Of a stretch of 64,000 nucleotides of DNA, positions 1 through 62,642 are shown piece by piece. Where the stretch lies: NCBI GenBank assembly GCA_052139675.1, contig JBKQWE010000026.1:2703-66702 (forward strand). The letters run 5' to 3'. Below the pieces are notes generated by a model. That model had not been told where the DNA came from, ran no database searches, and was given only the letters and a program-made list of their open reading frames with translations. The position numbers were made by a program, and so were the translations under genes. Source of the stretch: Candidatus Brocadiia bacterium (lineage in GTDB: Bacteria > Planctomycetota > Brocadiia > CAIUPP01). The stretch's first letter is position 1. Each line of letters begins with the position of its first letter.

Positions 1-1224
1 GCGTATCCCTTCCCGCTCGGCCGGACGGTCCGCTCGGACGACCCGGAGGAAATCGCCGAGGCGGTCGCCGCCTTTCCGAACATCCGCAAGCTGCTCCCGA
101 TGCCCGAGCTCCCGCCCCTGCCGGACTACTGCGACCCGGAAAACCAGAAGCAGGAGTTCCAGCCCCAGCGCACCTGGGGCGGAACGCCGGAGAGTTTCTG
201 CGTGGTCCGCAAGGGCCGCGTGGAATCCACCGGCGTGCGCGTGCGCGGCAAGCCTGATGGCAGCGTCGGGATCGTCGTGACGATCCAGGTGGAGCCGATG
301 GACGCCTTCGACCGGCGCTACATCGAATCCATGATGCTCGGCGCGCTCTCCATGATCCGCGGCGTCAAAGCCAGGCTCGACGGCGATTCGTTCGCCATTG
401 ACCTGGCCGAGGGGGCCGACCTCAAGCCCGGCCAGATCGGCGATACGCTGATCGCCGCCATCCGCCGGACCTGGCCGCGGCTGGACCGGATCCAGGTGGA
501 GGTGATCCTCGATCACGCCGAACTGAAGACGGCCGCGCCGCTCGTCCGCGCCGAGAAGGCGCAGCGTTCCCGCGAGGTCGCCGCCGCCACCGATGAGAAC
601 GCGGATCAGTTCTATCAGTGCGTCGGCTGCTCGCCCTTCGCCCCGGACCACGTCTGCTGCCTCACGCCCGAGCGCGCCCCGCAATGCGCCCGGCCTTACG
701 AGATGATCAAGACCGGCGCGCTCTATGGTTACGACGACGTGACGAACATCCATCACAGCGCGCTGCACCGGGAGATCAACTCATTCCGCGTCGTCGCCAA
801 AGGGCGCTGCCTGGACCCGGTTCACGGCGAGTGGGAAGGCCTCAACGCCAGCGCCGCGCAACTCAGCCGCGGGCGCACCACGCGCATCCGCCTGCACTCC
901 CTCGAAGGATTTCCCCACACCGGCTGCGGCTGCTTCCGAATGATCATGTTCAAGACCGAGTTGCCCCGGCCGGGAATCGGCATCATGAACAGCGGCTACG
1001 GCGGCCGCGCGCCCGACGGCCGGACCTGGCGCGACCTGCACTATGCCCTGGGCGGCAAGCAGACCGCGGGCCTCGCCGGCGCTGCGCCCTCGTACCTGCA
1101 TTCTCCGAAGTTCCTCAAGGCGCACGGCGGATGGAGCAGCGTCGTGTGGGTCAGCCCGAAGATCGCCGCCGCCGCGGGTCGCGCGCTGCCCGAGGGCGTC
1201 GAGGTCGGGCCGGAAGACGGTTGA
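1..1224 (+). CDS. acetyl-CoA synthase / CODH-ACS complex subunit (AcsB/CdhC-like), C-terminal A-cluster domain; 5'-truncated by the window edge (frame is open from nt 1)
   Basis: Cys spacing C-x2-C-x8-C-x9-C (CVGCSPFAPDHVCCLTPERAPQC) followed by a Cys-Gly-Cys motif (HTGCGCFRM). This matches the ACS A-cluster [4Fe4S] plus proximal-Ni ligands. No stop codon upstream of nt 100 in this frame. Confidence 0.6.
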   Translation, partial: AYPFPLGRTVRSDDPEEIAEAVAAFPNIRKLLPMPELPPLPDYCDPENQKQEFQPQRTWGGTPESFCVVRKGRVESTGVRVRGKPDGSVGIVVTIQVEPMDAFDRRYIESMMLGALSMIRGVKARLDGDSFAIDLAEGADLKPGQIGDTLIAAIRRTWPRLDRIQVEVILDHAELKTAAPLVRAEKAQRSREVAAATDENADQFYQCVGCSPFAPDHVCCLTPERAPQCARPYEMIKTGALYGYDDVTNIHHSALHREINSFRVVAKGRCLDPVHGEWEGLNASAAQLSRGRTTRIRLHSLEGFPHTGCGCFRMIMFKTELPRPGIGIMNSGYGGRAPDGRTWRDLHYALGGKQTAGLAGAAPSYLHSPKFLKAHGGWSSVVWVSPKIAAAAGRALPEGVEVGPEDG

Positions 1225-1249
1225 GGTGCGCCCGACTCACGTCTCGTAG

Positions 1250-2767: not shown

Positions 2768-3524
2768 GGCTGCCTTTCTCCTCCTTGGCGGCGGCCGGTT
2801 TGCCGCCGAGCGGATCGCCGCCCGCCGCCTGCCGCAGCGCCTTGCGCGCGATGCGCACGATGAGAACGCCGACCGCCACGGCGATGACCAGTCCGCCCCA
2901 GAACAAAATCCGCTGCGCCGGGGATTGCGGTCCGCCGCCGACCGCCGCGTCGGCCAGGCTGCGCGCCGCCGAGCCGATGTACACGTACACGACCGTGCCC
3001 GGCAGCATGCCGATCCACGAGGCGAGCGCGTAGCTGCGGAACCGCACGCGCGTCAGGCCGAAGGCGTAGTTGAGCAGGTTGAACGGGAAGACCGGGCTGA
3101 GGCGCGTGAGCAGGACGATCTTGAAGCCCTCGCGCCCGACCGCTTCGTCAATCGCGGCGAACTTCGCATTGCCGCCGATCTTCTTCGCCACCCAGCCGCG
3201 CGCCACCGTGCGCCCGACCCAGAACGCCGCGCACGCGCCGAGCGTGGCGCCGACGGAGACGGTCGCGGTCCCGAGGGCGAGCTTGAAGAGGAATCCGGCG
3301 CCGATCGTCAGGATGGACCCGGGCAGGAACAGGAGGCACGCAACGATGTAGAAGAGCACGACGACCACCGGCCCCCAGAATCCCAGGCTCTGCGTCCACG
3401 CCAGCAGGTGGAGCAGATACTCCTTCAGCGGCAGGAACTTGCCCGCCGCGACCAGGCCGGCGACCACCGCGACCACGACCGCAATGCGCCACCAGGCGCC
3501 CTTGCCGCTTTTGCTCTCGGGCAT
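2760..3524 (-). CDS. DedA/TVP38/SNARE-associated family membrane protein
   Basis: Polytopic hydrophobic protein. Glycine-rich re-entrant motif GSILTIGAGFLFK and LTRLSPVFPFNLLNYAFGLT typical of DedA. Co-oriented with the oxidoreductase. Confidence 0.75.
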   Translation of the reverse strand: MPESKSGKGAWWRIAVVVAVVAGLVAAGKFLPLKEYLLHLLAWTQSLGFWGPVVVVLFYIVACLLFLPGSILTIGAGFLFKLALGTATVSVGATLGACAAFWVGRTVARGWVAKKIGGNAKFAAIDEAVGREGFKIVLLTRLSPVFPFNLLNYAFGLTRVRFRSYALASWIGMLPGTVVYVYIGSAARSLADAAVGGGPQSPAQRILFWGGLVIAVAVGVLIVRIARKALRQAAGGDPLGGKPAAAKEEKGSHG

Positions 3525-5590: not shown

Positions 5591-7024
5591 CTACCGCAAA
5601 CCCTGCTTGCCGCCCAGCTCCGACTGGAGCATGAGATAGTACGCCACGCTGGTCAGCTCGCCCCAGCCATCCGGGTCCTGGGTGGCCTCGAAGTATTTCT
5701 GAATCTCGACGTCATAAGGCGCCAGCGAGGCCCACATGCGCAGAGTTTGGACCTTCGTGTCCTTGTCGGTGGCGAGCGTCACCTGGGCCGCCTGCGCGCC
5801 CTTGAGCTGGACGACGATCTTGCCCTGTTTCGCTTTATCGTTCCACTGCACGCTGACCACCGTGCCGTTCAAGGCGCCGGGGCCGGCGGAGATCGGCTCT
5901 GCGGTCATCGAGTTCGGGAAGCAGGCGCTGATCTCTTTCGCCGTGCCGCTGGAAGGCAGGACCGAGATCTCCATTCCGGCCGCCGGAGCGCCGGGACTGA
6001 CTCCCGCCCAGGCGGTCTTGGCGGTGGCGATCAGGCGGGCGATGTCGGCCTTGTCGAAGACCAGGCCATGCTCGTACCCGGCGACGATGCCGAGCGTGTC
6101 GAGCTGGTAATAGCCGCTGTTGGGATGGATGAACACGCCGTGCTTGGGGCTGCCGTCGGCCTTGTAATCCCACGGACCGGCCGGCTGATTGTAGTTCCAA
6201 ATCTCGTAGGTGCCATCGCTCTTCGGCGTCATCCGGCTCTTCATCACCTTGAACCACCGCTCCGCGTGCTCCTTGTATTCGGGCTTGCCGGTCACGTCCC
6301 ACATCGCGAGCATCCAGCGGGCCACCTCGTTCGCCTTGTTGTTCGGGTGCGAGGCGCCGTGCCCGGGATTGTTCCGGGTGTCGAAATCAACCCACTTCTT
6401 GTTGGTCGGGTCCAGCCCATAGGGCATGACCACGGACATCAGCCCGCCGTCCTTGGTCTCGCGCCAGCCGCCGCGCTTCGCCCATTTCTGGTAGAGCTGC
6501 TCGGCGAGCTTGAGGTAGCTCTCGCCCTTCGCGCCGTACTTTTCCTTCAACGCAGGGTTCCTGATCATCTCGCCGGCCATGAGGACGATCGGTCGGAAGA
6601 CCATGGCGTCGCTCAGCATGCTGTCGGCGTTGTAGTCGTCCATGTGATCCACCCAGGTGCCGGACGCCCCGACGCCGGGCCATCCGAGGAAGCCGTCCGG
6701 CTCCTTGATGGCGCGCTTGATGAGGGAGTCCGACCAGTCCACCATCAAGTCCACGTACTTGGTGTTATGGGTGGCCATGTAGCCGTAGTAGAAACCCTCC
6801 ATGACCGGCGTCATCGCCCAGGCGATGTCCTCGCCCATGGCCCGGTCGCACGTGCGGTAGCCCCTGGCTTCGCCGGAGATATTCTTGTCCCAGCGCGCGA
6901 GCCATTCCTTCTGCTTCGCCGAGTCCATCTTCGTGAGCGTCATGGCCGGAGGCGCAGTCTGCGCCTGGCAGACAACCGCCGCCAGCACAAGCCCGGCGGC
7001 GCACAACCCAATCATCTTCTTCAC
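5591..7024 (-). CDS. secreted protein, uncharacterised family (copy P1 of 6; possible alpha/alpha-toroid glycoside-hydrolase/lyase-like)
   Basis: GTG start with a signal peptide (MKKMIGLCAAGLVLAAVVCQAQTA). Shares about 60-80% identity with copies P2 and P3, which are tandemly downstream. Confidence 0.7.
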   Translation of the reverse strand: MKKMIGLCAAGLVLAAVVCQAQTAPPAMTLTKMDSAKQKEWLARWDKNISGEARGYRTCDRAMGEDIAWAMTPVMEGFYYGYMATHNTKYVDLMVDWSDSLIKRAIKEPDGFLGWPGVGASGTWVDHMDDYNADSMLSDAMVFRPIVLMAGEMIRNPALKEKYGAKGESYLKLAEQLYQKWAKRGGWRETKDGGLMSVVMPYGLDPTNKKWVDFDTRNNPGHGASHPNNKANEVARWMLAMWDVTGKPEYKEHAERWFKVMKSRMTPKSDGTYEIWNYNQPAGPWDYKADGSPKHGVFIHPNSGYYQLDTLGIVAGYEHGLVFDKADIARLIATAKTAWAGVSPGAPAAGMEISVLPSSGTAKEISACFPNSMTAEPISAGPGALNGTVVSVQWNDKAKQGKIVVQLKGAQAAQVTLATDKDTKVQTLRMWASLAPYDVEIQKYFEATQDPDGWGELTSVAYYLMLQSELGGKQGLR

Positions 7025-7094
7025 GTTTTCTTCTCCTGTCGTTCAATGACCGCTCGCAGGGAAACGATCCCCGCGGCGAATTCCGCGGCAAACC

Positions 7095-8519
7095 CTACTT
7101 AGCGGCCAGTTCCGCCTGGAGCATGAGATAGTGCGGCGTCTCGCTGAGGCCGCTCCAGCCATCCGGCGCCTCGGTCGCCTCATAGTTCTTCTGAATCTCG
7201 ACGTCATAGGGGACCAGCCCGTGCCACATCCGCAGGAGCTGGACCTTCGTGTCCTTGTCGGTGGCGAGCGTCACCTGGGCCGCCTGCGCGTCCTTGGGCT
7301 GGACGACGATTTTGCCCTGTTTCGCTTTATCGTCCCACTGCACGCTGACCACCGTGCCGCTCAAGGCGTCCGGGCCGGCGGAGAGCGGTTCCGAGGTCAA
7401 CGAGTTCGGGAAGCAGGCGTTGATCGCTTTCGCCGTGCCGGCCGGCTGGACCAAAACCGCCATCCCGGTCATCGCGCTGCCGGGACTGCCGTCCATCCAA
7501 CTGGTCTTGGCGGTGGCGGCCAGGCGAGCGATGTCCGCCTGGGTGAAGACCACGCCGTGCTCGTATGCGGCGACGATGGCGCGCGTGTCGCCCCAGTAAT
7601 ACCCGCCGTTGGGATGGACGCCGATCCAGTGCTTGGGGCTGCCGTCGGGCTTGTAATCCCACGGGCCGGCCGGCTGCCAATAGTTCCAGATCTCGTAAGT
7701 GCCGTCGCTCTTGGTCTTCATCCGGCTCTTCTGCACCTTGAACCACCGCTCCGCGTGGTCCTTGTATTCCGGCTTGCCGGTCACGTCCCACATCGCCAGC
7801 ATCCAGCGGGCGACCTCGTTCGCCTTGTTGTCGGGGTGCGAGGCGCCGTGGCCGGGAGCGTTCCTCGTGTCGTAACCGATCCACTTCGTGTTGGCCTGGT
7901 CCATGCCGTAGGGCATGACCACGGAGATCAATCCGCCGTTTCCGGTCTCCCGCCAGCCGCCGCGCTTCACCCACTTCTCGTAGAGCTGCTCGGAGAGCTT
8001 GATATAGCTCTCGCCTTTCGCGCCGTACTTCTCCTTCAGCGCGGGGTTCTTGATCATCTCGCCGGCCAGCAACACGATCGGGCGGAACACCATGGCCTCG
8101 CTGAGCATGCTGTCGGCGTTCCAGTCGTCCAGGTTGTCCACCCAACTGCCGGCCGCGCCTTTCGAGGGCCAGCCGACGAAGCCGTCCGGCTCCTTCACGG
8201 CGCGCTTGATGAGCGAGTCCGCCCAGTCCACCATCATGTCCACGTACTTGGTGTCATGGGTGGCCATGTAGCCATAGCAGTAGCCGTCCATGATGGGCGT
8301 CATTCCCCAGGCGATGCCTTCGCCCATTTCGCGGTCGCACGTGCGGTAGCCCTTGGATTCGCCGGAGATCTCCTTGTCCCAGAGGGTGAGCCACTCCTTT
8401 TGCTTCGCCGCGTCCATCTTCACGAGCGTCATGGCCGGGTTCAACGCCGTCTGCGCCTGGCAGAGCGCCGCCGCGAGCACAATGCCGGCGGAGCACAGCC
8501 CGATCATCGCCTTCTTCAC
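7095..8519 (-). CDS. secreted protein, same family (copy P2)
   Basis: By homology to P1 the start is GTG at 8519 (VKKAMIGLCSAG signal peptide) with a GGAGAGG ribosome-binding site. The longer track ORF reaching 8654 would overlap P3 and is taken as a shadow extension. Confidence 0.65.
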   Translation of the reverse strand: MKKAMIGLCSAGIVLAAALCQAQTALNPAMTLVKMDAAKQKEWLTLWDKEISGESKGYRTCDREMGEGIAWGMTPIMDGYCYGYMATHDTKYVDMMVDWADSLIKRAVKEPDGFVGWPSKGAAGSWVDNLDDWNADSMLSEAMVFRPIVLLAGEMIKNPALKEKYGAKGESYIKLSEQLYEKWVKRGGWRETGNGGLISVVMPYGMDQANTKWIGYDTRNAPGHGASHPDNKANEVARWMLAMWDVTGKPEYKDHAERWFKVQKSRMKTKSDGTYEIWNYWQPAGPWDYKPDGSPKHWIGVHPNGGYYWGDTRAIVAAYEHGVVFTQADIARLAATAKTSWMDGSPGSAMTGMAVLVQPAGTAKAINACFPNSLTSEPLSAGPDALSGTVVSVQWDDKAKQGKIVVQPKDAQAAQVTLATDKDTKVQLLRMWHGLVPYDVEIQKNYEATEAPDGWSGLSETPHYLMLQAELAAK

Positions 8520-22495: not shown

Positions 22496-22584
22496 CGGTG
22501 TCATTCCGAGCGGAGCGAGGAATCTCACACGCAGCGCATCGCAACGTTCTATGGTGTGAGACCTTTCGCTGCGCTCAAGGTGAC
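22496..22584 (+). repeat. ~90-nt palindromic repeat element, copy A (imperfect ~28-nt inverted arms gtcattccgagcgSagcgaggaatctca / tgagaccYttcgctgcgctcaRgg)
   Basis: Near-identical copy at 43303..43390. Inverted, expanded copy at 62519..62642. The track ORF 22498..22818 (MSFRAERGISH...) is a translation artefact of it. Confidence 0.6.
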
Positions 22585-27315: not shown

Positions 27316-28485
27316 TCAAATCGCGGCAAAAACTCCCGCCGCTCCCAAAATCGCCATGGGCTTCGGGTTTAAGAGAAGCATAAGCTCGTGCGTATGCCTA
27401 CGAGCGTTCCGGCCCGCTTCCGCGTGCACATGATCGCCTCTGCCGCCGAGCGTACTGAACTTGCTTTTGACAGGCTGTGTTGTAACGTAGAAGTACTTCT
27501 GCGATACCTCGCGCACCTTCTTGCCGGATAACCCGTTAGAGCAGTCATGGTCAGGGAAAGTCAGGATGGCTCTGGCACCGCGTGCTGCAATGGTGAGAAG
27601 TAAATCGTCCAAAGCGTTTGAGGACTCGCTGGTCACACTATACTTCGACCGAGGCCGCCGCGCTGGTTCTGGGTAGCGGCCGGCACCAGACACTTCGCCG
27701 CATTCACCTCGCGAAATCGTCTCCAAGACATGGTAGAAACGGCTGTAGTGAACGCCAGAATACGGTGGATCAATGAACACCAAGTCGTCATGAAGAAGTT
27801 CTTTAACTGCATCGTTCGCGTCGGCCACCTGCGCCTCGCCGCGGCAAAGCGCAAACTGGTTCGCCAATGAGTCAAAGGCGACACGGGTTTTGAATACAAT
27901 ATCCTTGTTCCATGCCTCTTGGAGGAATCTCCTCGCTGTCCGGGTCGGCTGGAAGGGCTGTGCTGTATGGCCGGGTGCGGCGGCGCATTGGCTCGCGGCT
28001 TGGATCAAAGCAGCTAGCGCAACCGTTTTGCCAGGTTCACCAGTGGGCAGGCTGCTCCTCAGCGCGTCTATCCAAACGGTCTGTTTCGGACTGTAATAGT
28101 GGCCACCGTAGGCTCTCGTTACAGGGAGGTGTGATTGTCCCATACTCCAAAGACGACAATCGGCAACGACGGCCCGGGTAAGCTTTACAGGAGCGGGAGA
28201 CCGTGTGGCACTACAAACGCTCACTGCACGGCGGTGCCACTCATACCAAATGGGCTCACCTTCGAGCTTCATCTGCCGATGCAAAACCGCGCCAGCGAGA
28301 ACGGTGCTGTAGCGCTGCAAGTCATAGGCGAGAACGGGTATGGAAAACTGACGTGCCACATGAATCGCAACGACACCTGATCCAGAGAACAAGTCCACGA
28401 AGCGCCGAGCATAAGGAGCTTGTCGGCCTAGCAGTTCGCCCAGGCCATTCTGTAACATTGCTCGCTTTGATCCCATGTACTTCAT
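27316..28485 (-). CDS. D12-class N6-adenine DNA methyltransferase (Dam-like)
   Basis: Start ATG 28485 (MKYMGSKRAM). Motifs YMGSK (D12 motif), FVDLFSGSGVV (SAM-binding FxGxG), LVFIDPPY (catalytic DPPY). 4-nt ATGA overlap with the upstream gene. Confidence 0.8.
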   Translation of the reverse strand: MKYMGSKRAMLQNGLGELLGRQAPYARRFVDLFSGSGVVAIHVARQFSIPVLAYDLQRYSTVLAGAVLHRQMKLEGEPIWYEWHRRAVSVCSATRSPAPVKLTRAVVADCRLWSMGQSHLPVTRAYGGHYYSPKQTVWIDALRSSLPTGEPGKTVALAALIQAASQCAAAPGHTAQPFQPTRTARRFLQEAWNKDIVFKTRVAFDSLANQFALCRGEAQVADANDAVKELLHDDLVFIDPPYSGVHYSRFYHVLETISRGECGEVSGAGRYPEPARRPRSKYSVTSESSNALDDLLLTIAARGARAILTFPDHDCSNGLSGKKVREVSQKYFYVTTQPVKSKFSTLGGRGDHVHAEAGRNARRHTHELMLLLNPKPMAILGAAGVFAAI

Positions 28486-28487
28486 GG

Positions 28488-29345
28488 TCAGTTCTTGAGC
28501 ACTTCGAGCCCGCCGTGTTCTGTAATTTGAAAATCGACGATACCGCTCACCCAAGTTGGGTTTCTATGCACGTTCCAAAAGCGACTACTTTGCACCAGAA
28601 TTTCGTCTAGGAACTTCCGGAACCTAACGATCCGATGATAAGCAACAACTTGAACATTGTCCAAATCAGGAAACTTGTTCGGCTTCGGTATCGGTGGCAC
28701 GGTGAAATCAATCTCCGAGATGCGTTGCACCCTGATTTTCAAACTCTCCACGTCGAGTACGCGAAAAGCGGGGTAAGGGAACAGATGGTCAACGTAGTTG
28801 GCACGGTCACGGTGCCCGACGTCGGAACAATCGTCAGGCTGCTGCGCTTTCTCATTCCTTGTAAACAGCGGGTCAGTTGCGAAATGACTGTCACTCTTCA
28901 CCTCGCGCCAATACAGGCAATGTTCTCTATCGCCAGCATTCTTAGTCCCGAAAGTGCAAACATGTTTGCCGCATTGCAAGCCTAGTCGGACGATGCGCCT
29001 ACGCCGGTGGAGATGAAAGCAACCGAGCAAATGTGCAATTGCTCGTACTGCGTAATGGCTGGAATAGTAACCCACACTCGAAGCCCAGAGTGGGCTGGCT
29101 TCCGTCAACGCTGCCGAGATCAAGAAGCTATGGACAGCGCGCAGCCAAATGTCGACAGCAGCGGTTGCGTACAGTGACGCTACCTCTGGCCGAACTGTGA
29201 CCGCAGGGTTCGCCTTCGGCGGCATGACTTGTTCCAAGGCCGTTGAGAGCGAAGCCGCTGGCGGGAAAGCATATTGAGCACGGCGGTTGTTCAGCGGCTT
29301 AAACGCTACCTGCAAGCGTGTCTGAAGCCCTCGGTCGATAGTCAT
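28488..29345 (-). CDS. hypothetical protein (possible His-Me-finger / HNH-like nuclease; speculative)
   Basis: No family recognised. Contains Cys/His-rich CFHLHRRRRIVRLGLQCGKHVC and a VDHLFP...N...H stretch reminiscent of DUF1524/HNH cores. Low G+C. 4-nt overlaps with both neighbours. Confidence 0.5.
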   Translation of the reverse strand: MTIDRGLQTRLQVAFKPLNNRRAQYAFPPAASLSTALEQVMPPKANPAVTVRPEVASLYATAAVDIWLRAVHSFLISAALTEASPLWASSVGYYSSHYAVRAIAHLLGCFHLHRRRRIVRLGLQCGKHVCTFGTKNAGDREHCLYWREVKSDSHFATDPLFTRNEKAQQPDDCSDVGHRDRANYVDHLFPYPAFRVLDVESLKIRVQRISEIDFTVPPIPKPNKFPDLDNVQVVAYHRIVRFRKFLDEILVQSSRFWNVHRNPTWVSGIVDFQITEHGGLEVLKN

Positions 29346-30718
29346 ATCGATCCCAACTCGCGCCGAACGTGAATTCTGTGCTTCACGGCAAGGGTTGCCC
29401 GCGCGTCAGGATCGAGTTTAGAGACATCTTGAGTGCCTACAACAGACGCCCAGAGCGTGTCTCGAAAACGCGCTAATCCGCCGCTCCCTAAAAAGCCTTT
29501 ATCCTTAAACTTCTTTTTCGCCACAAAACGACCGCCATCGACCAAGCCAGCCCGCGCCATAACTTCGCGAAGCCACTTAATAAGAATTCCCTTAGACGCA
29601 TCAGAAACCAGCGGCTGCTTCGCACTTTTGAGTTTCCAGATGCAGGCGGGCAAGAGCGTGAGGAATGTTACCACTACACGACCTTGATAGGCCACGTTAT
29701 CCGGGTCCAATTCTTCGCTATCGGCCAAGTCTTCCTTGCGTCCCGTCGCGTCCAACCATCCGTCCAGGCATTGGGCCAGGAATTCTGCCTGCGCCTCGAG
29801 ACTCGATACCCCTTCGTCGAATAAATCGTCGAGCACGTCCTCAATTGCAGAATTTAAAGTGGCTAGAGTCACGACATCCTTCACCCCGAACTTGATGCCA
29901 GGTATCTGGATCATGCCAACAAGCGGACCAATTTCGAGCATCAGCTTGCGTCCAAGGTCCTGAGCCCGTTCTTTGTTGTCTAGTGGCCCTCTTGCACCGC
30001 GTGCCGTCGGGAACAAGTCTGCGACCAAGGACCGATCCACTTTCTTCTGATAGAAGTTAACGTCAATGAATATTTGCGCTTGCCTACGAGGCGGGTCTTT
30101 GGGTTGATCGAGGTCGCGAAATATCTCCGCAGGAATTTCCCAAATAGCAGATGGCTGCGATTCCTTAAGCATCATAATTGCAAAGTACGCTCCGTTGATG
30201 CGATGTTGGCCGTCGATCACAGAAAAATTCAGCTCTGCGTCATTCTCATCGAACGTTAATGTCGCCGCGCCGTGTTCTCTTTGGATTCGGAATTCTTCCA
30301 ACCTCGCGCCGTTCACGTGGAGTAAGACATTTGAGAATGTCGGATACTCACTTCTCTGGTACCCTATAACATTACTGATTTTCGGCGGCCATTCTCTGCC
30401 GGACTCGTTCTTTTTAGGCTCGTAGATTTCACGAAAGCATTTATCCAGTTTCTTGGGCGCGTCAACGACCTCCTGTTGCAACAGGTAAGCCGCGATCTGT
30501 GCAACCCGCTTCCAGTCCAACGATCGTTGGATGCTGCGCACCTTCACTGGATTCCGATGTGGCGAATGCGGTTTTCCAGGCCACCACGTCATGAGCTTCT
30601 CTACGTTCAAAGCGCAGAGGCAGTGTTTCGCTTCGTGCAATTCCTTTGGTGCAAATGGATTAGCTGGCACAATGACGGAAATCCTGTGAATTCCATCAGA
30701 GTTTTCCGATGATGTCAT
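29342..30718 (-). CDS. DGQHR-domain protein (DndB/DpdB-like ParB/Srx-fold)
   Basis: Exact FSVIDGQHRINGAYFA motif. Size about 458 aa, as in DndB-like proteins. First gene of the overlapping trio. Confidence 0.7.
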   Translation of the reverse strand: MTSSENSDGIHRISVIVPANPFAPKELHEAKHCLCALNVEKLMTWWPGKPHSPHRNPVKVRSIQRSLDWKRVAQIAAYLLQQEVVDAPKKLDKCFREIYEPKKNESGREWPPKISNVIGYQRSEYPTFSNVLLHVNGARLEEFRIQREHGAATLTFDENDAELNFSVIDGQHRINGAYFAIMMLKESQPSAIWEIPAEIFRDLDQPKDPPRRQAQIFIDVNFYQKKVDRSLVADLFPTARGARGPLDNKERAQDLGRKLMLEIGPLVGMIQIPGIKFGVKDVVTLATLNSAIEDVLDDLFDEGVSSLEAQAEFLAQCLDGWLDATGRKEDLADSEELDPDNVAYQGRVVVTFLTLLPACIWKLKSAKQPLVSDASKGILIKWLREVMARAGLVDGGRFVAKKKFKDKGFLGSGGLARFRDTLWASVVGTQDVSKLDPDARATLAVKHRIHVRRELGSI

Positions 30719-43302: not shown

Positions 43303-43390
43303 GGTCATTCCGAGCGCAGCGAGGAATCTCATACGCAGCGTGCGGGCAACGGTTTGTGGTATGAGACCCTTCGCTGCGCTCAGGGCGACG
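43303..43390 (+). repeat. ~90-nt palindromic repeat element, copy B
   Basis: About 85% identical to copy A (22496..22584) over its full length. Intergenic. Confidence 0.6.
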
Positions 43391-43442
43391 CAGTGTGGGC
43401 TTGTGCGCGTTGCTTCCGGAACACGATATTCGATGCGGCGGC

Positions 43443-54979: not shown

Positions 54980-57844
54980 GTGATGAAGAAGCTCTTGCGG
55001 TCGGCGGCGCTGGTTTCGGCTGTGCTGGTCATCGCGGCCTCAGCGCGGGCCGAGGAAAAGAAGGTCACGTTCGATAACAAGGAAGCCATCGCCGGGTGGA
55101 CGGTGTCCGGCGACGTGGCGGTTGACGCGGCGAAGACGCGCCCGGACGGCGCGGGCGGGTCGCTCAAGATCGGCCCGGGCGGCAAGGCCGTCTGGAAGCT
55201 CGGCGACGCCGACCTTTCGGGCAAAGTGGAGTTCTGGGTTTACGAGGACGGCAAGGCGCCGGCGGACCCGAAGGCGCACGGCTACGGGTCGCTCTGGGGC
55301 GTCATGACGGCGGACGGCCACGCCCTGGTCAGCGGGGCGATCTATGCTCCGTACCTGGGCGGCGACACGACGTACGCCGTGGGCGAGTTCAATCCGGCGA
55401 AGGCGGGCGACCTGCCCTCGCTCAAGTGCCAATACCTCGGGCTGGACCGCGCGGTCGGCTGGCACAAGTGGACGTTCGACATGGACGCCGATACGGGCCT
55501 GACGATCCTGGTGGACGACAAGGATGTGAACGGGACGACGCCCAAGTCGCGGTTCGACTGGAACAAGACGGATCTTCCGGGAATCGCGGCCATCATTTTC
55601 ATGGGCGACGCGACCAAGGACGCCGCGCAGACTCTGTGGGTCAACGGCCTGACCGTGGCCCAGGGCCCGGCGATGACGGCCAGGCTGGCGCCGCCTCCGC
55701 CGCCGCCGCCGTTCCTGCCGGAGAAGGATCCCGCCGCGGCGGAAGGGCCGGCGGTCAAGTACGTCGCTGCCTTGGCCAACCAGCATCCGCGGCTGCTGTT
55801 CACCGCCGACCGGATTGCGCAGCTCAAGGCGTTTTACAACAGCCCGCAGGGCAAGACCTACCGGCAGGAGATGGAAGGATACATGGCCGGATGCACGGTG
55901 CCGGCGGACCGCAAGACGAGCCCGGCCTGGGGACAGGAGTACGGCCTGTTCAAGATGCCGATGGTCGCTCTGCACTATGTGCTGACCAAGGACCCCGATT
56001 CATTCCAGAAGTCGGTGGCGTACCTGAAATGGCTTGCCGGGACGGCCGATTGGACCGAGGGCGGCGAGCCGGCCGTGGAAGACACGCCGGAAGCCTACGC
56101 GAAAGTCATGGAGAAGTTGAAGGCGCTGGGACCTTACGACGAGCGGAACAGCGACACGACCGCTTCGTTCTGCATGGTCGGCGCGTCGCTCACCTGGGAC
56201 TGGCTGTACAACGACCTGGACCCGGCGTTCCGGGAGATGTTCCGGCAGGTGCTCTGGGAGCACGCCCGCGTGATGTACTACGGCGGCCACAAGGGCGGCA
56301 ATCCCGAGGGCGGCTATTGGCGCGGCGTGCCGGCGTATAATCACCGCTGGTTCCGCGACTGGGGCCTGACGCTGGCGGCGCTCGGCGCGGGCGAGGGCAA
56401 ACCGGAGCAACAGTGGCTGCTCAGCGAAGTGGAGAAGGAACTCAAGTTCATGGCGGCGTGGCTGCCGGTGGACGGCAGCCAGCACGAAGGCCCGGGTTAC
56501 GGCTCCAGCGCGGGCGCGCTGGGAATGGCCTTCGAGGTCTCGGACGATTTGAGCGGGACGCATTACCTCGACACGCCGTTCTTCAAGAGCGTCGCGGAAT
56601 ACACGATGGAGACCTCGGCGCCGGGCATGGAGGAGTCGCTCTACTTCGCCGATTGCTGGACCAAGGAACTCGGCATGAATTCGTTCTTCCTGAAAACCGC
56701 CGCGGCGCACAAACAGGCCGACGTCATGGACGGCATCCGGCATGCCCTCCAGCTCCACGCGAAGGATTGGGGCACGGAGGATTCCGCCTGGGAGCCGCTG
56801 ATCTACGATGATTCGAACATCAAAGGCGGGCGCTACGCCAACCTGCCGAAGTCGGCGTTCCTGCCGGACCTGGGGATCTCCATCAGTCGCGATTCCTGGC
56901 AGGACAAGGCCGTGGCCGCGATGTTCAAGTGCGGGCCGATGGGCGGCTACAAATCCAACTCCTGGCGCCCGACCCATATGGACGGTCAGAACCTGCCCTA
57001 CCTGAACGTGGCGCACGACCATCCCGATGCGAACTCCTTCATCGTCCTGGGCGACGGCGAGTACCTGGCCGAGACGGACCGCTATTGTGAGCAGCCGGGC
57101 AAGCTCTCCTCGAGCATCAATACGATCCTGATCAACGGCATCGGCCAGGCCGCGGACGGGCGGCCCGAAGGGGACACCTGGCAGCAACCCGGCGGCGCCG
57201 ACATGACCGAGCAGGGCAAGATCACCGCTTACAAGGACGCCGGCGACGTCGTGGTGACCGAAGGCGAGGCGGCCGGATCGTACCTGGCCTACGGCGAGCC
57301 CGGGGCCAGGAAGAGTCGCCCGGCGCTGGACCGTTTCCGCCGGACGTTCATCTGGGTCAAGGGCGGCTACATTCTGACGTTCGACGACATCCGTTCGTCC
57401 AAGCCGGTCGAGATCACCTGGCTCATCCAGGGCGCCAAGCTTCAGCCGGTGAGCGCGGCCGAGGGACGGTATAAGCTGGCCAAGGGCCAGGCCCAGTGCG
57501 AGTTCCAGCTTGTGGCGGACGTGCCGCTCCAGTCGAAGATCGGCGTCTCGACCGCCAACGATCACAGCAAACTGATGAACTGGCAGCAGCTCCAGGCCAG
57601 CGCCGAAGGGACCGCCGCGCGGTACGCCTGCGTTATTGACCCGTGGCACAAGAACGTGAAGGTGACCCTGACGCCCGACGGACCGGACAAGGCGACCCTC
57701 ACGGTCAGCGGCCCGGGCATCGCCGACACGTGGCAATGGCAGGCGGGCAAGGGCAAGTTCGAGGCGGCCACCTGGCACGGCTCGCGCCGCGGCGGGTTCG
57801 ACATTACGGTGGACGCCAAAACGGCTGTGCCGCCGTCGCCGTAA
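54980..57844 (+). CDS. secreted heparinase II/III-like (alpha/alpha-toroid + beta-sandwich) polysaccharide-lyase-family protein with N-terminal lectin/LamG-like module
   Basis: Signal peptide (MMKKLLRSAALVSAVLVIAASARA). N-terminal beta-sandwich, proline linker (PPPPPPP), large toroid-like middle domain, and C-terminal beta-sheet domain. Family call by architecture only. Confidence 0.45.
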   Translation: MMKKLLRSAALVSAVLVIAASARAEEKKVTFDNKEAIAGWTVSGDVAVDAAKTRPDGAGGSLKIGPGGKAVWKLGDADLSGKVEFWVYEDGKAPADPKAHGYGSLWGVMTADGHALVSGAIYAPYLGGDTTYAVGEFNPAKAGDLPSLKCQYLGLDRAVGWHKWTFDMDADTGLTILVDDKDVNGTTPKSRFDWNKTDLPGIAAIIFMGDATKDAAQTLWVNGLTVAQGPAMTARLAPPPPPPPFLPEKDPAAAEGPAVKYVAALANQHPRLLFTADRIAQLKAFYNSPQGKTYRQEMEGYMAGCTVPADRKTSPAWGQEYGLFKMPMVALHYVLTKDPDSFQKSVAYLKWLAGTADWTEGGEPAVEDTPEAYAKVMEKLKALGPYDERNSDTTASFCMVGASLTWDWLYNDLDPAFREMFRQVLWEHARVMYYGGHKGGNPEGGYWRGVPAYNHRWFRDWGLTLAALGAGEGKPEQQWLLSEVEKELKFMAAWLPVDGSQHEGPGYGSSAGALGMAFEVSDDLSGTHYLDTPFFKSVAEYTMETSAPGMEESLYFADCWTKELGMNSFFLKTAAAHKQADVMDGIRHALQLHAKDWGTEDSAWEPLIYDDSNIKGGRYANLPKSAFLPDLGISISRDSWQDKAVAAMFKCGPMGGYKSNSWRPTHMDGQNLPYLNVAHDHPDANSFIVLGDGEYLAETDRYCEQPGKLSSSINTILINGIGQAADGRPEGDTWQQPGGADMTEQGKITAYKDAGDVVVTEGEAAGSYLAYGEPGARKSRPALDRFRRTFIWVKGGYILTFDDIRSSKPVEITWLIQGAKLQPVSAAEGRYKLAKGQAQCEFQLVADVPLQSKIGVSTANDHSKLMNWQQLQASAEGTAARYACVIDPWHKNVKVTLTPDGPDKATLTVSGPGIADTWQWQAGKGKFEAATWHGSRRGGFDITVDAKTAVPPSP

Positions 57845-57979
57845 TGCGGGCGGCAAGGCGTACCCAGAATTCCCCGGTCGTGATCGCAAGCATCCGCGAA
57901 ATATCGGCTCAGAACATGATGCGAAGGATCCTTCTGGGGTCCGCCTGACTCGGATACAAAAACTCCAGTGAGGTAGAGT

Positions 57980-59068
57980 ATGAGCGGATTCTCCGCTACC
58001 AGACTGCAGATCTTGACCCTAGCCACACTGGTCCTCTTCGCCGTCGGCTGCGCTCGCGACAGGAAAGGCCCCGGCGAGAGCGTTTTGAGCGCGATGCCGG
58101 CCGGCCAGGCCGTCGCCTCGCAGGAGCAGGAGATCACCCCGTTGGATTTCGGCGCCGTCGGCGACGGCAAAGCCGACGACACGCAGCCGCTGCAGGCTGC
58201 CGTGGATGCGGCCATCTCGAAGAAGATCAAGCTGACCTCGCCCATGTCCGCCGTTTATGCGATCAAGGCTCCCATCCAGGTGCGTAGCACACTCAACGCC
58301 GATTTCCAAATGGCCGAGATCCGGGCGGCCGCCCCGATGGAAGCCCTCCTGCGGTATGAAACCTGGGACCGCTACACCCTGATCCAAAATCTCCGCCTCG
58401 ACGGGAACCTGATGGCCGACACCTGTCTCGACATCGTTGTCGGAAGCAAGATGCGGGTGGACAATCTGATCACAGGCCGCCATCGCAAGATCGCGTTGAA
58501 GATCGCAAAAGGAAATGAGATCTTCGTGCAGAACTCCCACATCAATGCGGCGACACCCGAGGACAACAGCGCCGAGTCCGCCGAGGACACCGTCGGGATA
58601 GATATCGCCACTTCGGACTGCCACTTCTCCGACATCGTGATCATTGACTGCAAGACGGCGATTATCAACCGCGGGCTCAACTACTACAGCCGCATCCACG
58701 CCTGGACCTTCAAGCCGGAGATCATAAAGGACTCCGTCTTCTTCGATCTCTGGCGGGACTGCATCATCTCCGAAAGCTTTGCCGACACCTTCTACATCTG
58801 CTTCCGGCTGCGCCGGCCGGGAATCGGGTGCAAGATCATCGGCTGCACCTCGTACTACAACGAGGAATTCTACCGGGCCGACCGAGGGCATGTGGCGCCC
58901 TACCTCTTCTGGGTGGACGAGGGCGACGGCCGGGGCACCGCCATGCAGTCGTCCGTAATGCTGGCCCCCAAAGCCATGGACGGGCACTACGCCAACATCG
59001 CAAACTGCGCCGTCTATACCGACGGCTCGACCAGTTTTTCCCGCTGGCAGGGCGCGCCCGAGCATTGA
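57980..59068 (+). CDS. lipoprotein, right-handed beta-helix 'pectate lyase superfamily' (PF12708 / GH28-GH55-like) protein
   Basis: Lipobox LFAVGC. Signature ITPLDFGAVGDGKADDTQPLQAAVDAA. Confidence 0.65.
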   Translation: MSGFSATRLQILTLATLVLFAVGCARDRKGPGESVLSAMPAGQAVASQEQEITPLDFGAVGDGKADDTQPLQAAVDAAISKKIKLTSPMSAVYAIKAPIQVRSTLNADFQMAEIRAAAPMEALLRYETWDRYTLIQNLRLDGNLMADTCLDIVVGSKMRVDNLITGRHRKIALKIAKGNEIFVQNSHINAATPEDNSAESAEDTVGIDIATSDCHFSDIVIIDCKTAIINRGLNYYSRIHAWTFKPEIIKDSVFFDLWRDCIISESFADTFYICFRLRRPGIGCKIIGCTSYYNEEFYRADRGHVAPYLFWVDEGDGRGTAMQSSVMLAPKAMDGHYANIANCAVYTDGSTSFSRWQGAPEH

Positions 59069-59294
59069 GGGCTGCGGCCGGCTGCGACGATAGCAGCACA
59101 AGATAAGTCGTGTGCCCCGGAACTCCCGAATGGTTCGGCCCGTTCCGTGTTCGGGGACAGGGCCTTGACAACACTCTCCCATCGGCGGAGATGTAACGGC
59201 CTTTCCTGCGGACGCGAAGGCGGACCTGGCGAAGGCGGAGGCTACTGTGGTGAGCCTAGTCACGGCCGGGAAAAAGGCGGTGTAGCTAGATTGG

Positions 59295-59324
59295 AGCGGG
59301 GCGGCAGATTATCGCCGCCCCGCT
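59295..59324 (+). terminator. perfect 11-bp GC-rich hairpin (AGCGGGGCGGC-agattatc-GCCGCCCCGCT) followed by AATATTT; candidate intrinsic terminator
   Basis: Only the + strand has a U-rich tail after the hairpin. About 225 nt downstream of the 59068 stop. Confidence 0.3.
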
Positions 59325-59474
59325 AATATTTCCGAGAGGGTTCAGCCTTTACTTGATCTCCGATGGCGACCGCAGTCATAGGTCGCGCATCCGGCATCTC
59401 ACGCCTACTTCCCGAATCTTCGTTCAGATCACTGAGAAAGAAGGCAAAGAAGCACCAGCACGAAGTCTAAATCC

Positions 59475-59888
59475 TCATTTCTCGTCCTCGATTCCTTCTT
59501 TTCGCTTCCAGCGACGATTCAGGAAGAAGGCTATTCCTATGGCTATTCCCAGTCCAGGTAAAACGCCAAGCAGGAACGCGGCCATACCAACGACGGAATG
59601 CATTTGTCCCATGATGAACTGCCCTGCGAAGCATCCGATGATTACGCCGATGCTGACACCCAACCATCTCCTCTTGAAACCATAGTCCAAGCCCCCGTTC
59701 ATTGCGAATGCAATGAACGTGTAGAACGAGCCGAGGGCGAAGATGGCTAGAATATCCCAGTATTCCCGGACGTGCTGCTTGAGAATGAACTGGCGATAAT
59801 AAAGAGAAATCATCATTGAAATGAACAAAATAAAGTAACCTCTTGCTGCAATACGGTTGATGGTGTTCTGAATGCGTTCATCCTGCAT
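59475..59888 (-). CDS. small 4-TM membrane protein partnered with an XRE regulator (DUF2975-like module?)
   Basis: 137 aa, four hydrophobic helices, low G+C. 11-nt overlap with the upstream HTH gene. Confidence 0.55.
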   Translation of the reverse strand: MQDERIQNTINRIAARGYFILFISMMISLYYRQFILKQHVREYWDILAIFALGSFYTFIAFAMNGGLDYGFKRRWLGVSIGVIIGCFAGQFIMGQMHSVVGMAAFLLGVLPGLGIAIGIAFFLNRRWKRKEGIEDEK

Positions 59889-60090
59889 GTTCGGATTCCT
59901 CCCAGAAAAGGTCGTTCAGGGTCTTGCCGAGCGCCTTGGCGATTGCGATGCAAAGATTCAAGGTGGGATTGTACCCGCCGTTTTCGATCAAGCCGATGGT
60001 TTGGCGTGTGACGCCGGCTTTTTCGGCGAGTTCGGCCTGCGTGAGGTTGTGCTCAACTCTGGCCAACTTCAATTTGATTCTTTGGTTCAC
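59878..60090 (-). CDS. XRE-family helix-turn-helix transcriptional regulator (Cro/cI-like, 70 aa)
   Basis: LTQAELAEKAGVTRQTIGLIENGGYNPTLNLCIAIAKALG is a canonical HTH_3 motif. Confidence 0.8.
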   Translation of the reverse strand: MNQRIKLKLARVEHNLTQAELAEKAGVTRQTIGLIENGGYNPTLNLCIAIAKALGKTLNDLFWEESEHAG

Positions 60091-60424
60091 TTTGACTCCT
60101 TATTAGAAGGTTATTTAGCATTATGCAAGGTATATATTGCGGAATATAATATATATCTGTCATATTGTCAAGGATATTCTTTGCTGCAAAACGCGGCTTA
60201 TTACGTAAGCACTTATCTTGAAGTGCTTTGCAATCATGCTTTTTTCAGAAATTACCGAATATTTCTCGAATTCAATCGAATGGCAGCATCGAGAGCATGG
60301 TAACTGCTGTGAAAGAGACGGGCTAGCCAGATTCGGCCTCGTTTTCACCGGCGTGGCAGTACAGTGGTCAGTAGGCCATTTTCAGATTTCGTAACTCTCG
60401 ACGCCACAGACACTAACGAATGGC

Positions 60425-60476
60425 GGCGCTCAGACTGGGGGTCTGGCGGTCGCGGGTTCAAGTCTCGCCGGCAACC
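60425..60476 (+). pseudogene. tRNA-Pro(GGG) 3' fragment (D-stem 3' half, anticodon arm TCAGA-CTGGGGG-TCTGG, variable loop, T-arm GCGGG-TTCAAGT-CTCGC, acceptor 3' strand CGGCAAC + discriminator C); no 5' acceptor strand present
   Basis: T-loop GTTCAAGTC, U33 and G37 flanking a GGG anticodon. The complementary GTTGCCG is absent within 120 nt upstream, so this is a partial tRNA copy (possible integrative-element att remnant). Confidence 0.45.
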
Positions 60477-60559
60477 TCTTACGCCGAAAGACATTACCGG
60501 CCGAATCATATCGTGGCCGGCACCGGGCGTCAACGGAAAAGTCGTGCCGCAACGGCTGC

Positions 60560-61432
60560 TTGCAAGGTCGGCAGGTGATGGATATAATCCAACGGGTTTT
60601 CGGCGGCCTTGCCCGTCGCAGGGACCTCGCTTCCATCATCGCGTCCGGATCGGAGCACGGCGTGCGCCCATCACCGATGATCTACTATCGCGACCTGGTC
60701 TGGGTCCTCGTCGCGAAGGAACTGAAGCTCCGCTACCGGAACACGGTCCTGGGGTACGCGTGGTCCGTGCTCAATCCGCTGGCGTTCGCCATGGTGTTCT
60801 TCGTCGTCTTCAAGATATTCATGCGCATTCCGGTTCCGAACTACACCCTCTACCTGATCACGGGCCTGTTCCCCTGGCAATGGTTTGCGAACTCCGTCAC
60901 GGCCTCGAACTACTTCTTTCTCGACAACAGTTCCCTCATCAAGAAGGTGAAGTTCCCGAGGTATTTCCTGGTCGTTGCGGGCGTCCTGAACGACCTGATT
61001 CACTTCGCCTTCTCGATCGCGGTGATCGTCGTCTTCATGATCTTCTATCACAAGGTCCCGGCGCTGAACTGGATCGTGCTGCTGCCTTTCCTGGTGCTGG
61101 TGCAGTTCCTGCTCACGATGGGGATCGCGCTCTTCGTGTCCAGCTGCAACTTGTTCTTCCGAGACTTGGAGAGGCTCGCGGGGGTCGTGGTCATGCTTTG
61201 GTTCTACGCGACGCCGGTGATCTATCCGGTGGACATGATTCCGCAAAGACTCAAATGGGCGACCTTCGCCAATCCGATGGCCCCGCTGATCATCTGCTGG
61301 CGAAGCCTCTTCATGGGAACCCCTTTATCGTTTTTCTACCTCGGGCAGGCTGCGGCGTGGGCCGTGCTGATTTTCATGGTCGGCCTTCAGGTCTATAAGT
61401 CCCTCGAGTGGAGGTTCGCCGAGATTGTCTAG
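60560..61432 (+). CDS. ABC-2 type polysaccharide/teichoic-acid exporter permease (Wzm/KpsM/TagG family)
   Basis: Six transmembrane helices. ABC-2 signature region LGYAWSVLNPL...LFPWQWFANS. Confidence 0.8.
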   Translation: MQGRQVMDIIQRVFGGLARRRDLASIIASGSEHGVRPSPMIYYRDLVWVLVAKELKLRYRNTVLGYAWSVLNPLAFAMVFFVVFKIFMRIPVPNYTLYLITGLFPWQWFANSVTASNYFFLDNSSLIKKVKFPRYFLVVAGVLNDLIHFAFSIAVIVVFMIFYHKVPALNWIVLLPFLVLVQFLLTMGIALFVSSCNLFFRDLERLAGVVVMLWFYATPVIYPVDMIPQRLKWATFANPMAPLIICWRSLFMGTPLSFFYLGQAAAWAVLIFMVGLQVYKSLEWRFAEIV

Positions 61433-62437: not shown

Positions 62438-62518
62438 ACGGATGTCGCTAAGCACCCTGCATCGGTTATGAAATAGGCTCTAGTATCGTGTTCCGGAAGT
62501 AACACGCATAAGTCCAGA

Positions 62519-62642
62519 CGGTGTCACCCTGAGCGCAGCGAAGGGTCTCATACCATAAACCGTTGCAGCGCGCCGCGTGTGAGATTCCTCGCCGTTCGGC
62601 CCTGAGCTCACGGCCGAAGGGCTACGCTCGGAATGACCGCGT
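62519..62642 (-). repeat. palindromic repeat element, copy C (inverted orientation, with an internal ~30-nt nested hairpin insertion)
   Basis: Arms caccctgagcgcagcgaagggtctcatacca and ...gagattcctcgcc[gttcggccctgagctcacggccgaagggc]tacgctcggaatgac are reverse complements of the copy A/B arms. Confidence 0.5.

Follow-up and report, generated by a model that had tools for sequence, protein, structure and literature searches.

A tRNA-Pro(GGG)-derived attR-type junction, probably left by an integrative element at a non-tRNA site of a wetland Planctomycetota genome

Introduction

How does an internal piece of a tRNA-Pro(GGG) gene come to lie in a stretch of DNA in which no complete tRNA gene is predicted? 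The question is raised by 64,000 nucleotides of a Candidatus Brocadiia bacterium genome (GCA_052139675.1, contig JBKQWE010000026.1, positions 2,703 to 66,702), hereafter called the window, whose source lineage is one of uncultured Planctomycetota from peat and wetland metagenomes. An initial annotation had read positions 60425-60476 as the 3' two-thirds of a tRNA-Pro next to an A/T-richer segment, and had taken the place for the remnant attachment (att) site of a decayed integrative element.

Integration into the genes of tRNA and transfer-messenger RNA (tmRNA) by tyrosine integrases was reportedly described by Williams in 2002 (NAR 30:866, cited in PMC9897764). Genomic islands placed in such genes by tyrosine integrases are the subject of Islander (Hudson, Lau & Williams 2015, PMC4383910).

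Here we argue that the tRNA piece is the end of a larger conserved unit, 60341-60470, and that this unit is probably a junction of the type found at the right attachment site (attR), composed of a P arm and a tRNA-like core. It would belong to a family of integrative elements that target tRNA-Pro(GGG), and it stands at a non-tRNA site beside a tiny islet without an integrase. The argument is carried by what can be observed directly: the unit is homologous to others, relatives have it at genuine attR sites, its likeness to tRNA has definite limits, the segment next to it is foreign in composition, and neither a tRNA gene nor an integrase gene is present. Labels from L001 to L096 denote the individual loci or contigs that were compared with the window.

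The tRNA-Derived Core

The native tRNA-Pro(GGG) of related metagenomic Planctomycetota reads CGGGGCG...CGCCCCGACCA (L046, L048, L052, L054 and L088). In a BLAST comparison with the whole window it gives a single strong match, 60431-60470, with two mismatches. The matched core corresponds to linear tRNA positions 30-69 (standard numbering 28-67). It starts with the anticodon arm and its GGG anticodon, continues through the variable loop and T-arm, and ends 2 nt into the acceptor 3' strand. Its derivation from a tRNA is certain.

This means that the anticodon arm, variable loop and T-arm recognized in the initial annotation are those of a tRNA-Pro(GGG), while the limits given there were too wide. 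The supposed acceptor 3' strand at 60470-60476 reads CGGCAAC and not CGCCCCG as in the tRNA, and the homology ends at 60470. That the 5' half is missing was seen correctly: ARAGORN predicts no complete tRNA or tmRNA in the 64-kb window, nor in the 6 kb past its right end that are covered by L001. A complete tRNA with an unusual 5' half or an intron was considered and rejected: under relaxed ARAGORN settings the single prediction, made with introns allowed, is a spurious 'tRNA-SeC' whose acceptor and D stems are mismatched and which needs an intron of 36 nt. With Rfam 15 no family reaches its gathering score, the best relevant match being the tmRNA model of the tRNA clan (12.2 bits against a threshold of 47 bits). 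The window holds no second copy of the fragment or of the arm described below, and the core has no exact match in IMG/VR.

The Conserved Unit and Its Arm

The core is the 3' part of a conserved unit of about 130 nt, of which the upstream 90 nt (60341-60430) had been missed. In this arm, blocks follow each other in the order GGCATGACAGTACAGTGGTCAGTA, TCGTAACTCT, CACTAACG, separated by variable spacers. An nhmmer profile of the arm, built from L030, L063, L064, L080 and L046 with no tRNA sequence and with the window excluded, matches the window once, at 60341-60428 (E 4.4e-18). As in the other family members, the arm is some 90 nt long and carries two CAGTAC repeats, TCGTAACTC and CACTAACG at a fixed distance upstream of the core, with the repeats at -74 and -62 as in all members. 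Over the ~130 nt, the window unit is 77-81% identical to the other units.

The metagenomes of the Joint Genome Institute were scanned for the core from anticodon to T-arm, which yielded 66 loci: about 52 intact tRNA-Pro(GGG) genes, 12 3' pieces, and 2 cut by contig ends. The arm precedes the piece in six distinct contexts, namely the window, L030/L039, L063, L064/L079/L085, L080 and L046, and in part also in L075. L046 was found by means of a gapped motif pattern, after the first alignment of five contexts had been made.

In the 723 kb of compared DNA, pairs of the form CAGTAC-N6-CAGTA occur only at -74 from the core (in the arm) and at +199/+211 (in the native flank), always on the tRNA strand. 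The exception is one chance match in an A+T-rich viral contig; in all, ~0.3 matches are expected by chance. This pattern speaks for a recombination site. A viral origin was also considered and set aside; the one viral contig that matches the arm pattern (L096) has no tRNA part, and looks like chance. In all, there are two CAGTAC repeats at -74/-62 and three at +199/+211/+223, a total span of ~325 bp. By analogy, these repeats would be arm-type integrase binding sites. The CAGTAC-arm family, which belongs to a peat and wetland clade of Planctomycetota, is previously undescribed yet conventional.

The downstream array was also observed at loci that appear unoccupied. In L048, L088 and L063, which represent several species, three CAGTAC repeats with 12-nt spacing follow the terminator, at roughly +199 to +230 nt relative to the tRNA-Pro core, preceded by repeats of the CTACGG / CCTACAGG type; a diverged version is present in L054. 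The array may represent a P' arm that became fixed long ago, or a set of binding sites on the host side.

Genuine attR Sites in Relatives

The clearest case is L046, a close relative with a DSE-like paralogue upstream. Here an intact tRNA-Pro(GGG) is followed by a new terminator, a 3.5-kb insert, the unit, whose tRNA 3' end is complete though decayed, and the native tRNA flank. The insert has a G+C fraction of 0.59 against 0.63-0.65, and its open reading frames (ORFs), read by eye, suggest a GIY-YIG protein, an ArsR-like helix-turn-helix (HTH) protein with a membrane protein, and a hydrolase; no integrase is among them. The flank after the unit is 78% identical to that of the intact tRNA in L054, whereas the flank after the intact tRNA of L046 itself reaches 57%, which is background. 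L046 thus bears the textbook signature of left junction (attL), island and attR, as described for islands that target tRNA genes (PMC4383910; PMC9897764).

Two further members fit the same configuration of tRNA, islet and fragment: in L063 and L080 the unit is followed by the full tRNA 3' end and the native terminator, and the flank in L063 is 79% identical to that of the intact tRNA in L048.

tRNA-Pro(GGG) is a proven integrase target in these organisms, because in L052 a gene with a Phage_integrase domain lies directly downstream of an intact copy. The arm type of L052 differs from that of the window. Other recombinases also occur at tRNA-Pro(GGG), since L036 has an rve transposase there and L075 a large serine recombinase, and there are other arm types.

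Several details of these loci deserve mention in their own right. In L052 (oriented, tRNA core 6459-6492; integrase ORF 6338-7918, minus strand) the integrase frame meets no stop before it enters the tRNA-Pro gene on the opposite strand, so that the integrase gene may extend across the attachment site of the element (attP), as it does in Mx8 and SSV (PMC4383910). The matching arm motif, AGATTCGGTGCAAGG, precedes a fragment in L036, a locus of the same assembly. In L075 (oriented, core 335-368; recombinase ORF within 362-2785, minus strand) the gene of a protein with Resolvase and Recombinase domains ends beside a tRNA-Pro(GGG) 3' fragment with a complete 3' end. Only tyrosine recombinases are known to target tRNA genes (PMC4383910), and a serine-recombinase element at a tRNA would stand apart from this. 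L077 and L068 represent a different arm family, with ACCGTAGACGCCCGCTGTC just before the core. In L077 there is in addition a near-complete tRNA-Pro-like sequence ~200 nt upstream of the 3' fragment, with the anticodon loop CTGGAAG rather than CTGGGGG; this arrangement may be a decayed attL or a tandem.

The Junction at a Non-tRNA Site

We now consider where the tRNA homology of the window ends. It stops after ...GTCTCGCCG at 60470, exactly where it also stops in L030/L039, whose genomic surroundings are different. In L064, L079 and L085 it stops within 2 nt of this endpoint, the common end being ...GTC(C/T)CGCCG. The endpoint is the junction of T-stem and acceptor stem (J), one of the three sublocations (A, T-loop and J) at which integrases of tRNA genes cross over (PMC4383910). 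We infer that the crossover took place at J. For recombination between an attP of the L063 type and a chromosomal tRNA-Pro(GGG), it is predicted to lie within ...TCCCGCCG....

The last ~9 nt of the tRNA and its native flank are absent at the window core, and the sequence that follows is 51-58% identical to native tRNA flanks, which is background. The initial annotation had offered, as an alternative, an intact tRNA further upstream, but 60 kb in that direction contain none, the genes on that side are host-like in their codon usage, and the closest relative at this locus, L009, has no tRNA there. Judged by these comparisons, the window unit is not at a native tRNA locus, because no tRNA lies in the 60 kb upstream, L009 has none, the flank similarity is at background level and the homology stops at J.

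Nor is the fragment a displaced tRNA 3' end. It is internal (standard positions 28-67), and has neither the acceptor strand nor the native flank downstream, both of which are retained in true attR copies. CGGCAAC followed by C was also tried as the end of another tRNA, with a crossover in the T-arm, and rejected, as none of the 60 tRNAs in the compared loci starts with GTTGCCG or TTTGCCG.

At L064/L079/L085 (oriented in L064, unit ~1470-1605; ORF 1546-2211, minus strand) the unit abuts a gene for a Zn-type alcohol dehydrogenase, which is truncated at its GIIGIG (GxGxxG) nucleotide-binding motif. Upstream are a 465-aa protein without a family match and a Schlafen/AlbA_2-HATPase_c_4 protein. This appears to be an island inserted into a protein-coding gene.

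The Foreign Islet

The low-G+C patch that adjoins the unit has sharp edges. The initial annotation had described it as a visibly A/T-richer segment of ~1.1 kb, which its composition bears out: the G+C fraction is 0.47 at 59327-60340, and the G+C fraction at third codon positions (GC3) is 0.59 for the DUF6773 gene and 0.69 for the XRE gene, against 0.84-0.89 in the neighbouring DSE-like, 362-aa and ABC (ATP-binding cassette) genes. The pair of a Cro/cI-like HTH gene overlapping a small gene with four transmembrane segments was likewise correctly recognized, the two being an HTH_3 and a DUF6773 protein that share 11 nt, the latter with four hydrophobic segments. We infer that the pair arrived with the unit.

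It had also been noted that no integrase remains. The Pfam table, which covers ~10 kb on either side, contains no integrase or recombinase, and when the integrase of L052 is used as a tblastn query all matches have E > 5. Of the two outcomes that had been named in advance as contrary to an att site, a complete tRNA predicted here and relatives with the fragment but without inserted DNA, neither was found.

What did not hold is the view of the XRE/membrane-protein pair as typical cargo of mobile elements. The overlapping pair recurs in at least four other contexts (L021, L022/23, L024-26 and probably L020), where it stands alone amid unrelated housekeeping genes, and no tRNA, unit or integrase is found near these other modules. 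In L020-L026 its G+C fraction is 0.45-0.51 whether the host locus is at 0.40 or 0.66, and the DUF6773 gene is duplicated in L022/L023. This suggests that the pair moves horizontally often, or that it is under a strong compositional constraint. A PADLOC search for defence systems returns generic HTH matches for the XRE protein and nothing for DUF6773, of which the literature searched makes no mention.

Proposed Origin and Its Weak Points

Taken with the known biology of tyrosine integrases, these observations suggest the following course. The attP of the element would carry the tRNA sequence that starts near position 28, flanked by the arm with its repeated CAGTAC. Recombination with the chromosomal tRNA gene would regenerate the tRNA at attL and leave the P arm joined to the 3' part of the tRNA at attR. 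In the window, the attP-borne core left of J would instead have been joined to non-tRNA DNA by recombination at J, at a secondary site. Most likely, the unit came with the adjacent foreign segment of ~1 kb, either by secondary-site integration or by transfer of an islet end. The attL side and the integrase would have been lost, or would never have been present if the islet was mobilized in trans. What is left is an inert, immobile scar. The remnant att site proposed in the initial annotation is thereby upheld in that arm and core are fused as at the attR of L046, L063 and L080 and no integrase is left, while the fragment being a tRNA end, the tRNA upstream and the typical cargo had to be given up.

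It is important to point out what weighs against this assignment. No integrase of the family is found next to any CAGTAC-arm member (the L046 islet included), and the arm is tied to tyrosine integrases by analogy only. The coincidence of endpoints at J rests on just two independent junction types, window/L030 and L064. Furthermore, the 8 nt after the core are shared between the window and L030 (GCAACCTC and GCAAACTC, respectively) though the flanks beyond differ, and a simple model of secondary-site integration predicts no such sharing; the octamer hints at the start of a P' arm or at a preferred secondary target. The window contains no attL and no P' partner or array, and integration is therefore indistinguishable here from other ways of importing DNA. 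The sole syntenic relative, L009, differs by a replacement of the whole 2.7 kb and thus offers no clean empty site. Finally, the XRE/DUF6773 pair and the unit may be neighbours by accident, because the pair occurs elsewhere as a stand-alone low-G+C module without any att-type unit.

Alternative Explanations

The alternative that survives best, although we regard it as unlikely, is that the end of a tRNA-Pro islet, consisting of cargo and attR, was copied into the polysaccharide locus by illegitimate or homologous recombination while gene clusters were being shuffled, the break between T-stem and acceptor stem being accidental. The region does look prone to recombination, since L009 has other DNA throughout the slot 57855-60527 and the homologues of the 362-aa gene occur in unrelated contexts. 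The lack of an attL partner and the ~50 nt of unexplained DNA that separate the unit from the part common to L009 would also be in line with it. However, the ends of two independent junction types are no more than 2 nt apart and coincide with an established integrase crossover position, whereas random breakpoints should scatter over the unit.

Quite unlikely, too, is the model of the initial annotation, a classical attR at a former native tRNA-Pro locus. Later deletions would then have taken away the regenerated tRNA gene, the integrase gene and the bulk of the element, and would have shortened the displaced fragment by its final 9 nt. The combination of P arm and tRNA part does look like the real attR of L046, where, moreover, a DSE-like paralogue directly upstream of tRNA-Pro gives a gene order reminiscent of the window. 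In addition, the hairpin at 59295-59326 contains the exact acceptor strands of tRNA-Pro, CGGGGCG...CGCCGCCCCG, unique in the window. This likeness is not outstanding, since matches of 10-11 nt to a G+C-rich stretch are common in the window, and an unbiased scan finds the resemblance not significant. The native flank and terminator, present after each genuine attR or chromosomal site (attB) in L046, L063, L054, L048 and L088, are absent in the window; in place of the acceptor 3' strand there is a sequence also seen in L030, which lies in other genomic surroundings; and L009 has no tRNA at the locus.

The hairpin was also considered as an internally deleted tRNA-Pro or as an attL relic, and downgraded, as the unbiased scan finds many equal matches of 10-11 nt. 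With a 'mini-tRNA' query, places in the window score higher than this hairpin, which is probably an ordinary terminator.

A third possibility, to which we assign a low probability, goes beyond a mere scar: the unit may act in cis as a portable module for recombination. Small islets without an integrase would then be moved in trans by a clade-specific integrase, into tRNA-Pro(GGG) and, via J, into secondary sites in coding or intergenic DNA. The islet cargo comprises an HTH regulator and a small membrane protein in the window, and an ArsR-like regulator, a membrane protein and a hydrolase in L046. If true, this would explain the spread of 'nomadic' low-G+C XRE/DUF6773 modules among high-G+C Planctomycetota. 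In a more exotic variant, the unit may be transcribed as a tRNA-like regulatory RNA.

It is very improbable that the unit is primarily a functional structured RNA, that is, a tRNA-like non-coding RNA of 130 nt with a 5' domain followed by anticodon-like and T-arm-like hairpins. Conserved blocks with variable spacers would suit such an RNA, as would the weak tRNA-clan match in Rfam, and with five sequences the spacers of one locus do pair better with each other than under permutation (2/120). This signal fades once L046 is added (50/720), the single-sequence folds are no stabler than those of shuffled sequences (z +0.3 to -0.4), and the RNAalifold covariation term of -0.8 kcal/mol indicates little covariation. 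Furthermore, no Rfam family is matched, the putative pairings have no common register, there is neither a conserved promoter nor a consistent orientation relative to neighbouring genes, and the position of the unit with respect to intact tRNAs is fully explained by the logic of att sites. A chance resemblance to tRNA, for which one could cite that ARAGORN and Rfam call no tRNA, is practically excluded because the tRNA part matches with E 2e-13 and the independent arm with E 4e-18, and the unit recurs in other contexts.

The Locus and Its Surroundings

Having weighed these alternatives, we keep the reading as an attR-type junction at a secondary site, and turn to the locus in which it stands. 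The coordinates of all features are collected in Table 1.

Table 1. Features of the window at and around the unit (positions in the window; strand given where it applies).
Feature	Positions	Strand	Basis or remark
Variable slot relative to the closest relative	57855-60527		blastn and pairwise alignment of both boundaries
Gene of 362-aa pectate-lyase-fold protein	57980-59068	+	Within the variable slot; GC3 0.84, host-like
Perfect 11-bp G+C-rich hairpin at left edge of patch	59295-59326		Sequence
Foreign low-G+C patch (islet body)	59327-60340		G+C 0.47 against 0.64 for the window
DUF6773 small membrane protein, 137 aa, four hydrophobic segments	59475-59888	-	Pfam PF20563, E 8e-12; homologues at most 67% identical
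XRE/Cro-cI-type HTH regulator, 70 aa	59878-60090	-	Pfam HTH_3 (PF01381), E 2e-18; 11-nt overlap with DUF6773 gene
Near-consensus sigma-70-type promoter TTGACA-17-TATATT of XRE/DUF6773 operon	60143-60171	-	Predicted, by consensus match only
P-arm-like conserved segment	60341-60430	+	Profile from other loci, alignments, repeat map
CAGTA(C) direct repeats, 12-nt spacing	60357-60362 and 60369-60373	+	In P-arm-like segment
TCGTAACTCT block	60389-60398	+	In P-arm-like segment
CACTAACG block	60411-60418	+	In P-arm-like segment
tRNA-Pro(GGG)-derived core	60431-60470	+	38/40 against native tRNA, E 2.4e-13; compared with 52 intact tRNA-Pro(GGG) genes
Non-tRNA junction octamer GCAACCTC	60471-60478	+	7/8 shared with GCAAACTC of the L030/L039 junction
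Promoter-like site of ABC-2 transporter operon	60560-60588	+	DNA common to L009; host flank, outside the unit

The surroundings are of polysaccharide type, with the DSE-like gene and the 362-aa gene upstream, and an ABC-2 permease and ATPase followed by glycosyltransferases downstream. The DSE-like protein (54980-57844) is 93% identical to one in the metagenome-assembled genome 'Candidatus Brocadiia bacterium SPRUCE 14' (L009), which is the sole syntenic relative among 11 genome loci. The alignment between the two stops at 57854 and resumes at 60528, with ~50 nt separating the unit from the shared DNA. In L009 the slot measures 838 bp and holds a methyltransferase-like ORF on the minus strand, with neither tRNA nor unit.

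Within one population the locus is constant. An identical XRE protein is found on eight contigs from different samples, all of that population (96-100% identity, at least 98.7% in 7/8), and the unit is present and identical in 8/8. The unit is fixed in the population, because it is identical in all eight contigs, which come from several samples. L003 was considered as a structural variant and rejected, being a colinear copy of merely lower identity (96% overall).

The 362-aa gene is probably not part of the foreign islet, because its codon usage is host-like (GC3 0.84). In L002 and L003, which are of the same population, the gene (57980-59068; P0080, P0090) is called with 374 aa, and the 99-100% identity extends over just 64-79% of the query; either the N-terminus is strain-variable or there are frameshifts in the assemblies.

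A few other features were observed. Within the ~50 nt to the right of the unit there is a small hairpin, CCGGCC-gaatcatatcgt-GGCCGG, at 60497-60520. At 10961-11050 of L003 (about 52.07-52.16 kb of the window) ARAGORN predicts a tRNA-Ser(cga), and makes no such prediction for the colinear part of the window; the L003 prediction falls within long ORFs and is probably a false positive from sequence differences. A second low-G+C patch at 27316-30718 on the minus strand (0.52-0.57 against 0.64) carries three co-oriented genes, for a type II/Dam-like DNA methyltransferase (412 aa, DPPY motif), a 285-aa protein without a family match and a 458-aa DGQHR-domain protein (TIGR03187, E 2e-22, DndB-like), and is probably a small acquired defence or DNA-modification islet. 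Finally, a palindromic repeat of ~110 bp is present in three copies of ~87% identity, at 62489-62597 (+), 43319-43428 (-) and 22515-22584 (-); its arms are of the type GTCACCCTGAGCGCAGCGAAGGGTCTCA / TGAGATTCCTCGCTGCGCTCGGAATGAC, and it resembles an intergenic element of the MITE (miniature inverted-repeat transposable element) or REP (repetitive extragenic palindromic) type.

Significance

A tRNA-like fragment that lies away from any tRNA gene can thus be traced to an element family through the conserved arm attached to it. Tools that search for tRNAs or islands would miss or reject the window unit, which has no intact tRNA, no integrase and an internal fragment. The compared loci show tRNA-Pro(GGG) to be a hotspot for several element families in Planctomycetota, and the CAGTAC arm provides a sequence signature with which small islets in uncultured peat and wetland lineages can be found. 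If such units mark mobilization by an integrase in trans, or secondary integration, they would help to explain the mosaic nature of polysaccharide gene clusters. The window copy itself is an inert relic, and its practical importance is modest.

Comparison with Known Systems

As in the islands of tRNA genes collected in Islander, a tRNA-oriented fragment marks the end of acquired DNA, the full signature is seen in L046, and the homology ends at J. Unlike those islands, the window has neither an intact tRNA nor an integrase, the fragment is internal (28-67) rather than an end fragment, and the locus is a non-tRNA one; the Islander filters would reject it for each of the first three reasons.

In attP of the lambda type, the arm-type integrase sites P1, P2 and P'1-P'3 are direct repeats on both sides of the core. 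Short direct repeats about one helical turn apart are likewise present on both sides here, and their span of ~325 bp compares with the '~250 bp' given for attP (PMC4383910). In contrast to lambda, no binding protein is known for the CAGTAC arm, and the three downstream repeats lie in what behaves like the host-side flank of unoccupied loci (L048 and L088), where they may reflect the remnant of an older, fixed element.

Integration at secondary (pseudo-att) sites is described for lambda and other temperate phages. Here, too, an att junction stands at a non-canonical locus, the homology ends at the presumed crossover, and the L064 copy interrupts a protein-coding gene; the difference is that no empty secondary site or matching attL is seen, and the event would have to be deduced from the junction.

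The cis-mobilizable elements (CIMEs) related to the integrative and conjugative elements of Streptococcus thermophilus are bounded by att sites and have no integrase. The 3.5-kb islet of L046 is of this form, and the ~1.1-kb islet of the window is also integrase-less. The window has, however, only one att-type end, and any mobilization in trans would be hypothetical.

Fragments of tRNA genes at attR are sometimes miscalled as tRNA genes (PMC9897764). The window fragment resembles them as a partial tRNA that stems from element integration, and differs in being uncalled by the predictors and in carrying a conserved non-tRNA arm. With other pairs of XRE and DUF6773 genes (PF01381 / PF20563), the islet shares a gene for a 70-aa HTH protein overlapping one of ~137 aa, and it is only in the window that an att-type unit adjoins such a pair.

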